46,348 nucleotides of DNA from Rickettsiales bacterium (GCA_031289855.1 JAITOR010000026.1:1-46348), one strand, 5' to 3'; counted from the first letter of the stretch, positions 17,485 through 17,727 are shown. Program-made: numbers and translations. Notes: generated by a model from the letters alone, not told the origin.

Positions 17485-17524
17485 AAAAAAAGTTTATTAC
17501 TTTTACTGATTAGAAAAGTATAAA
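17485..17524 (-). terminator. Rho-independent terminator of the tracr-like RNA
   Basis: On the minus strand the stem is TACTTTT / AAAAGTA (7 bp, plus 4 bp after a 1-nt bulge) with a 9-nt loop, followed by C and T7 (17491-17485). Confidence 0.6.
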
Positions 17525-17595
17525 GAAATAAATTGCGCTACTTAATCGTAACTTATTTTGTAAAGTCTTTAAAATTTTTAAAGGCAATCCAAAAC
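17485..17595 (-). ncRNA. Candidate tracrRNA (41-nt anti-repeat W', nexus-like hairpin, terminator)
   Basis: The anti-repeat is GTTTTGGATTGCCTTTAAAAATTTTAAAGACTTTACAAAAT. It is followed by AAGTTACGATTAAGTAGCGC... (small hairpin GTTAC/GTAGC) and the terminator. It is complementary to X': 15 bp with 1 mismatch at the proximal end and 8 bp at the distal end, with an irregular middle. Confidence 0.55.
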
Positions 17596-17606
17596 ATGAG
17601 AAAGTA

Positions 17607-17727
17607 GTTTTGTATTGCCTTAAAATTATTATAGATTAAATACAAAACAAGAATGGAAAATTTAGGAAGTAAAAACCATCTTACTTTTGTTTTAATATTA
17701 TTACTATATTAGATTTTAAAGTCAAAT
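17607..17727 (-). CRISPR. Degenerate single-spacer mini-array: repeat X' (17648-17607), 35-nt spacer-like segment (17683-17649), degenerate repeat Y' (17727-17684)
   Basis: X' is GTTTTGTATTTAATCTATAATAATTTTAAGGCAATACAAAAC (42 nt). Y' aligns to it only partially (AATCTA..TAATAAT..ACAAAAG) and lacks GGCAAT. No two repeats are identical, so this does not meet normal CRISPR-array criteria. Confidence 0.35.
17697..17725 (-). promoter_or_regulatory. Promoter cassette copy Y', driving the repeat/anti-repeat unit
   Basis: On the minus strand: TTGACT (17725-17720), a 16-17-nt spacer, then TAATAAT (17703-17697). It is near-identical to Z' over about 30 nt. Confidence 0.55.

Follow-up and report, generated by a model that had tools for sequence, protein, structure and literature searches.

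A lone CRISPR repeat 11 nt from an anti-repeat in a rearranged type II-C CRISPR-Cas9 locus of a Rickettsiales bacterium: a candidate natural cis-fused guide RNA

The repeat and anti-repeat module

The DNA analysed here (the window, 46,348 nt) is a single 46-kb metagenomic contig of 30% GC (JAITOR010000026.1 of assembly GCA_031289855.1) from a Rickettsiales-like, AT-rich, uncultured bacterium, and all coordinates are counted along it. It encodes the proteins Cas9, Cas1 and Cas2 of a CRISPR (clustered and regularly interspaced short palindromic repeat) system and, on the minus strand at 17485-17727, a module in which a repeat (X') and an anti-repeat (W') are separated by only 11 nucleotides (nt). 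The module is best explained, judging by its sequence, as the trans-activating CRISPR RNA (tracrRNA) gene of a rearranged type II-C CRISPR-Cas9 locus, with a full-length repeat lying 11 nt upstream of the anti-repeat. A first-pass annotation had proposed the order promoter, leader, repeat, loop, anti-repeat, tail and terminator, and the minus strand indeed reads this way: promoter P1 is followed by a unique leader of ~42 nt, X', an 11-nt loop, W', a small hairpin, an A/U hairpin and a run of seven T (T7), with the following coordinates:

17697-17725, minus strand: promoter P1, sigma-70-like, in which a 17-nt spacer separates TTGACT (17725-17720) from AATAAT, the last base of which is 17697; 10/12 promoter positions matched, predicted start near 17690
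17649-17690, minus strand: unique 5' leader of ~42 nt, the last 20-24 nt of which (...TTCCTAAATTTTCCATTCTT) occupy the spacer or guide position
17607-17648, minus strand: repeat X', 42 nt (GTTTTGTATTTAATCTATAATAATTTTAAGGCAATACAAAAC), present as a single copy in the window and pairing end to end with W'
17596-17606, minus strand: loop or linker TACTTTCTCAT, 11 nt, between repeat and anti-repeat
17555-17595, minus strand: anti-repeat W', 41 nt (GTTTTGGATTGCCTTTAAAAATTTTAAAGACTTTACAAAAT), the 5' part of the putative tracrRNA
17485-17554, minus strand: tracrRNA tail, with AAG and a 5-bp hairpin GTTAC/GTAGC (17552-17537), a linker, an A/U-rich hairpin (17520-17498) and T7 (17491-17485)

The complementarity of X' and W' around a bulged middle, also noted in the first pass, was found throughout their length. 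As a bimolecular duplex the two segments form 33 base pairs (bp) at -23.4 kcal/mol, in which an internal loop separates a lower stem of 8 bp from an upper stem of ~25 bp. The arms next to the loop pair at 89% over 19 nt (17577-17595 with 17607-17625, 11 nt apart), and at the far end, in the lower stem, GUUUUGUA pairs with UACAAAAU at 8/8 positions. Pairing with W' of this quality was reached by only 0.08% of 42-mers drawn at random from the window; a few unrelated coding stretches nevertheless reach a similar energy, so that it is the adjacency of the two segments and their end-to-end register, and not energy alone, that carry the argument. Folding of the whole unit, a check that the first-pass annotation had suggested, gave -40.9 kcal/mol over 216 nt (z = -3.8), with 0/200 shuffled sequences folding as well, and the 94-nt hairpin ranked in the best 0.6% of all 94-mers of the window. 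The start of the tail, AAG plus the 5-bp hairpin, spans 17554-17537.

X' stands alone. No second copy was found in the 46-kb window at up to 3 mismatches, and no array was detected there by TRF (Tandem Repeats Finder), in agreement with the earlier description. No Rfam family scored above threshold at the module; the CRISPR-DR50 family matched on exactly the coordinates of X', weakly and below threshold (20.3 bits, E = 1.9).

Related loci, cas genes and promoters

For comparison we assembled 162 related Cas9 loci from genomes and metagenomes, of which the fetched stretches only were considered. The Cas9 of the window is isolated among them, its best relative being 50% identical and all others at most 42%. 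An array of 3 to 86 repeats occurs in the fetched stretch of 105 of the 162 relatives, and in 92 of these 105 the anti-repeat is inverted and sits just upstream of cas9, at 4.3-5.5 kb from the array, which is the usual type II-C layout. No relative among the 162 has an anti-repeat within 60 nt of a repeat.

The tracrRNAs of the relatives consist of an anti-repeat, the lower stem CCGTTAAC, AAG, a small hairpin, ACAAAATGA and a GC-rich terminator. W' and its tail keep this order of modules with little sequence similarity; the repeat ends GTTTTG...CAAAAC and the ACAAAAT-AAG-hairpin junction do agree with the relatives' tracrRNAs. In ten type II-C relatives the repeat:anti-repeat duplex has 25-33 bp, with a lower stem of 7-8 bp, an internal loop and an upper stem, and the window duplex (33 bp, 8-bp lower stem, internal loop) has the same architecture. 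On this ground we accept X' as the putative cognate repeat, and W' with its tail as the putative tracrRNA, of the window Cas9. The features by which a tracrRNA is recognized are thus present in the sequence, namely an anti-repeat forming lower stem, internal loop and upper stem, and a 3' hairpin with a terminator, albeit a weak one.

A possible parental arrangement was found on a Dehalococcoidia chromosome (locus L057), in which 149 nt separate an array of 33 repeats from the tracrRNA downstream of it, on the same strand and next to cas2. This tracrRNA (11440-11731 of L057, minus strand), placed between cas2 and the array and on the strand of the array, is the sole case of such a layout among the 105 array-bearing relatives. 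By its sequence the window looks like this layout with only one repeat left of the array and the gap narrowed to 11 nt.

The nearest lineage, represented by L001 and L287 from one Joint Genome Institute (JGI) sample, has the gene order cas9-cas1-cas2, and its contig ends 30 nt into the apparent first repeat. The module was absent from all 162 Cas9 loci, L001 and L287 included, and from three gltX loci of two sister Rickettsiales metagenome-assembled genomes (MAGs); in these MAGs gltX has no cas genes beside it and nothing of the module is conserved. Some closer relatives have an 18-19-bp hairpin with a 4-nt loop between cas2 and the first repeat (L002 14672-14713, L004 11656-11697, L005 7490-7531, L006 11449-11488 and L008 11436-11475), which may be a terminator or a leader element, and no counterpart of it flanks X'. 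A gapless hairpin scan of the relatives was discarded, having missed even the window's own hairpin.

The cas genes of the window and their predicted promoters are:

12921-16088, plus strand: cas9, 1055 amino acids (aa), of type II-C size; Pfam RuvC_III, HNH_4 and Cas9_a, the last an alpha-helical domain
16089-16466, plus strand: cas2, 125 aa; Pfam CRISPR_Cas2, E = 9e-14
16461-17342, minus strand: cas1, 293 aa, convergent with cas9-cas2; Pfam Cas_Cas1, E = 4e-28
12870-12898, plus strand: predicted cas9 promoter, with a third copy of the box AAATTTGACTTTAAA, a run of twelve G (G12, 12881-12892) in its 17-nt spacer, then TAATAT
17446-17473, minus strand: predicted cas1 promoter P2, a second copy of the P1 core AATTTGACTTTAAAATCTAAT, identical in that core

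Cas9, Cas1 and Cas2 look intact by sequence. Residues D12, E504, H595, N618, H742 and D745 of Cas9 fall in invariant columns of a 15-sequence alignment (the window and 14 relatives), and we take them to be the catalytic residues by assignment from D10, E762, H840, N863, H983 and D986 of SpCas9. Cas1 likewise keeps all residues that are invariant in a 12-sequence alignment (E147, H204, D215/D216 and E219). A Cas9 with RuvC and HNH domains and catalytic residues, whose closest relatives are Cas9s of type II-C size, places the locus in type II-C, while the array that would adjoin the cas genes in this type is represented by one repeat in 46 kb. The claim that all three Cas proteins occur without a second repeat in the window thus holds on Pfam domains, invariant residues and the repeat search. 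The gene order is atypical (cas9-cas2, with cas1 convergent); no gene qualified as csn2 or cas4, and the neighbours are an NMO-like gene and gltX. The end of cas9 (16088) lies ~1.4 kb from the tracrRNA tail. Housekeeping genes surround the locus, encoding a RadA-like ATPase/Lon-domain protein, a flavoprotein, the NMO-like enzyme, the gltX product and an exonuclease-helicase, and the closest gltX proteins (70-75% identity) are named 'Rickettsiales bacterium'. Within cas9, positions 14048-14095 (plus strand) are a perfect 24-nt tandem duplication, two copies of TTTTAAAGATAAAGAGGTGAATAA that duplicate 8 aa in frame.

P1 and P2 were the top promoter-like matches in the region 12700-18000 (10/12 positions each), and the scan found no promoter-like site on the minus strand between 17697 and 17473. 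X' and W' are therefore predicted to share one transcript, there being no promoter-like site between them; any transcript of X' would run into the tracrRNA, because no such site intervenes and 11 nt cannot hold a terminator. The box AAATTTGACTTTAAA occurs upstream of cas9 (12866-12880, plus strand), of cas1 (17462-17476, minus strand) and of the X'/W' unit (17714-17728, minus strand), and P1 and P2 agree at all positions of a 21-nt stretch and resemble each other over ~35 nt. Of the three copies of the box, the two on the minus strand form direct repeats flanking a 252-nt module, and the cas9 copy is inverted relative to them. G12 fills most of the 17-nt spacer between TTGACT and TAATAT in the cas9 promoter, and expression of cas9-cas2 could be phase-variable, because slippage in this run would alter the spacing.

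A promoter motif of the form TTGAC...TA..AT is found inside the repeat in 37 of the 105 array-bearing relatives by a simple motif test, and X' gave no match to it. A perfect TATAAT does occur in the middle of X' (17628-17633, minus strand), within a 17-nt block that agrees with the -10 region of P2 at 15/17 positions; it has no -35 element at a suitable distance, and by its sequence it could act as a weak internal start for a shorter, guide-less RNA. P1 and P2 themselves were considered as degenerate repeats and kept as a lead only, as they lack the GTT... lower-stem end and their pairing with W' is not above background. Besides the 15/17 block in X', they have TTGACTTTAAAA in common with the putative first repeat of L287 (ATTATTTACTAACTGGTTTTAAAGTCAAGA, 1892-1921, at the contig end after 30 nt), the reverse complement of which contains TTGACTTTAAAA with the same -35/-10 spacing as the window box. 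The cas promoters of the window might, from such sequence likeness, have descended from repeat-borne promoters, the similarity to L287 being no higher than expected for two AT-rich promoters.

Search for a target of the guide segment

We searched both strands of the window with the last 12-18 nt of the guide and for shared k-mers of at least 9 nt. P1, P2 and the 500 nt upstream of cas9 have no k-mer of 10 nt or more in common with the guide. Near the cas promoters the best match is 9 nt long (ATTTTCCAT, 12927-12935), lies inside the start of the cas9 coding sequence and is set 4 nt off the repeat-proximal end of the guide; matches of 9 nt are frequent by chance in the window. A 10-mer at 2285-2294, within an open reading frame (ORF) of 971 aa, was also at chance level and was rejected as a target.

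The first-pass annotation had suggested comparing the segment with viromes, and this search yielded no target. In IMG/VR a single exact 20-mer match was found to the 20 nt adjoining X', at 6972-6991 (minus strand) of L164 (IMGVR_UViG_3300042691_047309), a 176-kb viral contig of 29% GC with phage-like genes, where it takes in both the start codon and the ribosome-binding site of a gene for UDP-glucose dehydrogenase. When extended to the length of the relatives' spacers, the match falls to only 25/30. The 16-mer of the guide has at least 120 matches in IMG/VR, and among the 126 other 16-mer matches listed 22 extend by at least 1 nt, nine by at least 2 nt and three by at least 3 nt; because this pattern of extension predicts about one 20-mer match by chance, we rejected L164 as evidence for a target. 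L164 and the nearest Cas9 relative (3300042609) have JGI sample numbers close to each other. GenBank phages gave no significant match to the guide, and neither the 3' half of X' nor the tracrRNA tail is present in IMG/VR.

Readings of the module and their meaning

We hold, by a slight balance of probability, that the lone repeat is co-transcribed with the tracrRNA and serves as a natural cis-fused guide, either as a single-guide RNA (sgRNA) or, after cleavage by RNase III, as a dual RNA with one guide. Transcription would start at P1, ~42 nt upstream of X', and give a single RNA of ~205 nt, in which X' would fold back on W' into the shape bound by Cas9, with the 8-bp lower stem, the internal loop, the upper stem of ~25 bp, AAG and its hairpin, and the terminator. 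The 20-24 nt upstream of X' would stand in for a spacer. Left uncut, the fused RNA would act as a natural single guide; the ~25-bp upper stem is a plausible substrate for RNase III in the predicted fold, and a cut there would leave an ordinary pair of CRISPR RNA (crRNA) and tracrRNA with one fixed guide. The module most likely originated, we infer, from the rarer type II-C layout in which an array is followed by a tracrRNA on the same strand, as in L057, through contraction of the array to one repeat. The fused RNA would then keep Cas9 loaded with one hard-wired guide, and X' could still seed a new array, given that Cas1 and Cas2 are intact. A more far-reaching version, in which the fused RNA is the sole guide of a nuclease-competent Cas9 and the system is non-adaptive, has a host gene or a mobile element that recurs as its one fixed target and is driven by the same promoter box as cas9 and cas1, appears to us quite unlikely.

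Several observations weigh against a cis-fused guide. The guide has only chance-level matches in the window. The terminator is weak, its stem being A/U and separated from the T-run by 6 nt in one of two possible folds. X' measures 42 nt, compared with 36 nt in 97 of the 105 array-bearing relatives, and the upper stem of X':W' is less perfect than theirs. A sequence-only model of the tracrRNAs of 24 relatives gave no score to W' and its tail; sequence divergence is to be expected, since the window Cas9 is only 31-50% identical to those of the relatives in the model, and RNAalifold found no consensus pairs among the relatives' tracrRNAs from which a structural model could be made. The module is known from one locus only. 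The repeat search covers 46 kb, and an array may lie elsewhere in the genome. The initial proposal of a natural single guide is therefore sustained in its architecture, in the prediction of a shared transcript and in the type II-C-like duplex, and lacks a target and a homologous module in which covariation could be traced.

X' might instead be nothing other than a lone repeat, that is, a contracted or nascent array kept as an integration site for Cas1-Cas2, the fusion to the tracrRNA being incidental and the 'guide' a flank with no target. The apparently intact Cas1 and Cas2, the full length of X' (no trimmed mimic), the failure of the guide to find a target and the parental layout displayed by L057 all fit this account, and single-repeat type II-C arrays are known to be adaptation-competent and to arise by contraction (PMC12477760). 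It does not, however, account for an external promoter upstream of X' with the same core as the cas promoters, nor for the 11 nt found in place of a leader, and no leader could be recognized beside X'. X' also lacks the embedded TTGAC...TA..AT motif carried by 37/105 related repeats, on account of which it looks adapted to transcription from outside. We judge this account unlikely, although well short of negligible. A conventional multi-spacer array that is merely missing from the contig, having been collapsed by the assembler or placed on another contig, seems improbable. The source is a metagenomic contig, most of the relatives (105/162) have arrays, and a collapsed array would leave just such a succession of flank, repeat and flank. 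Moreover, in the Logan assembly of SRR14710898 the contigs stop at 17474 and 17773, so that the 298 nt containing the module (17475-17772) lie outside independent contigs and are not independently confirmed. These breaks, however, lie off the borders of X' (17606 and 17649) and likely stem from low coverage of a very AT-rich stretch, the 3' half of X' and the tracrRNA tail are both without a match in IMG/VR, and the adjacency of X' and W' would give a fused RNA even if an array existed elsewhere. The break at 17474 lies 2 nt inside the duplicated promoter box, and no small ORF inside the module is on record.

A role in autorepression is suggested by tracr-L, the natural sgRNA of Streptococcus pyogenes type II-A (Workman et al.; 10.1101/2020.05.21.102756), which has since been extended to type II-C in a preprint that also covers small CRISPR-Cas-associated RNAs (scaRNAs) regulating Cas9 and an array-less Gemella locus (Feussner et al., 2026; 10.64898/2026.06.01.729453). 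The fused RNA would in that case use a short seed match to bring Cas9 to a cas promoter and repress cas expression. The architecture is that of tracr-L, the three copies of the promoter box would make a convenient common target, and tracr-L has been reported in type II-C systems; on the other hand, neither P1 and P2 nor the 500 nt upstream of cas9 contain a guide match of at least 11 nt, and the nearest, the 9-nt match in the cas9 coding start, is too short to stand out from chance and does not abut the repeat-proximal end. This makes autorepression of the tracr-L kind very improbable. That the element is a chance hairpin or an ordinary terminator in AT-rich intergenic DNA, unrelated to CRISPR, we consider practically negligible. 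It could appeal to the few unrelated coding stretches that pair with W' at similar energy, to the lack of an above-threshold Rfam match and to the silence of the relatives' tracrRNA model at this position; yet the element adjoins cas1, its register and stem architecture equal those of type II-C duplexes, the repeat ends and the ACAAAAT-AAG-hairpin junction recur in the relatives' tracrRNAs, the z-score is -3.8, and the same model finds no other tracrRNA candidate in the window, even though Cas9 looks functional.

The first-pass annotation had regarded a repeat and anti-repeat fused in cis, as the only guide source of such a locus, as new. This was an overstatement in view of the type II-C natural single guides and the array-less locus of the 2026 preprint (10.64898/2026.06.01.729453), the lone-repeat states already described (PMC12477760) and the order of elements in L057. 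The window unit resembles tracr-L in carrying a guide-like 5' end, a repeat-like segment, a loop, an anti-repeat and a tail on one predicted transcript in a cas locus. A tracr-L is recognized by a perfect guide match of at least 11 nt in the cas9 promoter region, adjoining a protospacer-adjacent motif (PAM), with cas9 within 10 kb. The predicted transcript contains the lower stem in cis that is sought in tracr-L, and cas9 is near enough; but tracr-L has an 11-15-nt guide matching the cas9 promoter beside a PAM and no such match exists in the window, for which reason we do not file the module as a tracr-L autorepressor. Furthermore, tracr-L mimics only the first ~12 nt of the repeat (a 6-bp lower stem being the search criterion) and has a long upper-stem extension, whereas X' is full-length with an 11-nt loop, and tracr-L occurs alongside an array and a short form of tracrRNA, of which the window showed neither.

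Lone-repeat type II-C arrays arise by neogenesis or contraction (Zhou et al., 2025; PMC12477760), and the window resembles them in that it has one repeat only, keeps cas1 and cas2 intact and could plausibly have arisen by recombination between repeats. In Neisseria type II-C, where the repeats contain the promoters and the tracrRNA lies elsewhere, no crRNA comes from a lone repeat (PMC12477760), whereas the external promoter and adjacent anti-repeat of the window would make a stable guide RNA. The solitary guide plus repeat outside an array, used with tracrRNA and Cas9, recalls the scaRNAs of Francisella type II-B; these, however, are transcribed on their own and pair in trans, and partial targets are known for them, and identity with them was rejected, since the window unit is fused in cis 11 nt from the anti-repeat and has no endogenous target in the window. 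A phage-encoded sgRNA (vsgRNA), which would be expected within a phage or prophage and as a rule beside anti-CRISPR genes, was likewise rejected, the unit being flanked by cas1 and gltX in a housekeeping context and two of its parts being absent from IMG/VR. With canonical, Neisseria-like type II-C systems of the same clade the locus shares a set of Cas9, Cas1 and Cas2 only and the repeat:anti-repeat architecture, and with L057 the succession of repeat, tracrRNA and cas genes on one strand. It departs from the canonical clade, which has cas9-cas1-cas2, 36-nt repeats with internal promoters and a tracrRNA usually upstream of cas9, by its cas9-cas2 order with cas1 convergent, its one 42-nt repeat and its 11-nt gap. 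The window is set apart from the known cases by combining a full-length repeat and an 11-nt fusion with an external promoter that the cas genes share, and by having neither an array on the contig nor a match between the guide and a cas promoter.

Natural sgRNAs bind and direct Cas9 (10.1101/2020.05.21.102756; 10.64898/2026.06.01.729453), and by analogy we infer that the fused RNA would work in the same way. The value of the case is limited by its single, unconfirmed contig, by the lack of a target and by the natural sgRNAs, including those of type II-C, that have already been described. If the RNA is made and loaded, it would represent a natural route from dual-RNA to single-guide systems, in which an array contracts to one repeat beside the tracrRNA, and it would offer a compact type II-C sgRNA scaffold that evolved in nature, its full-length stem closed by an 11-nt loop. 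With short arrays, RNA-free type II-C Cas9 stimulates the uptake of spacers (PMC12477760); Cas9 would be kept occupied by a cis-fused guide, and this short-array response could be damped.

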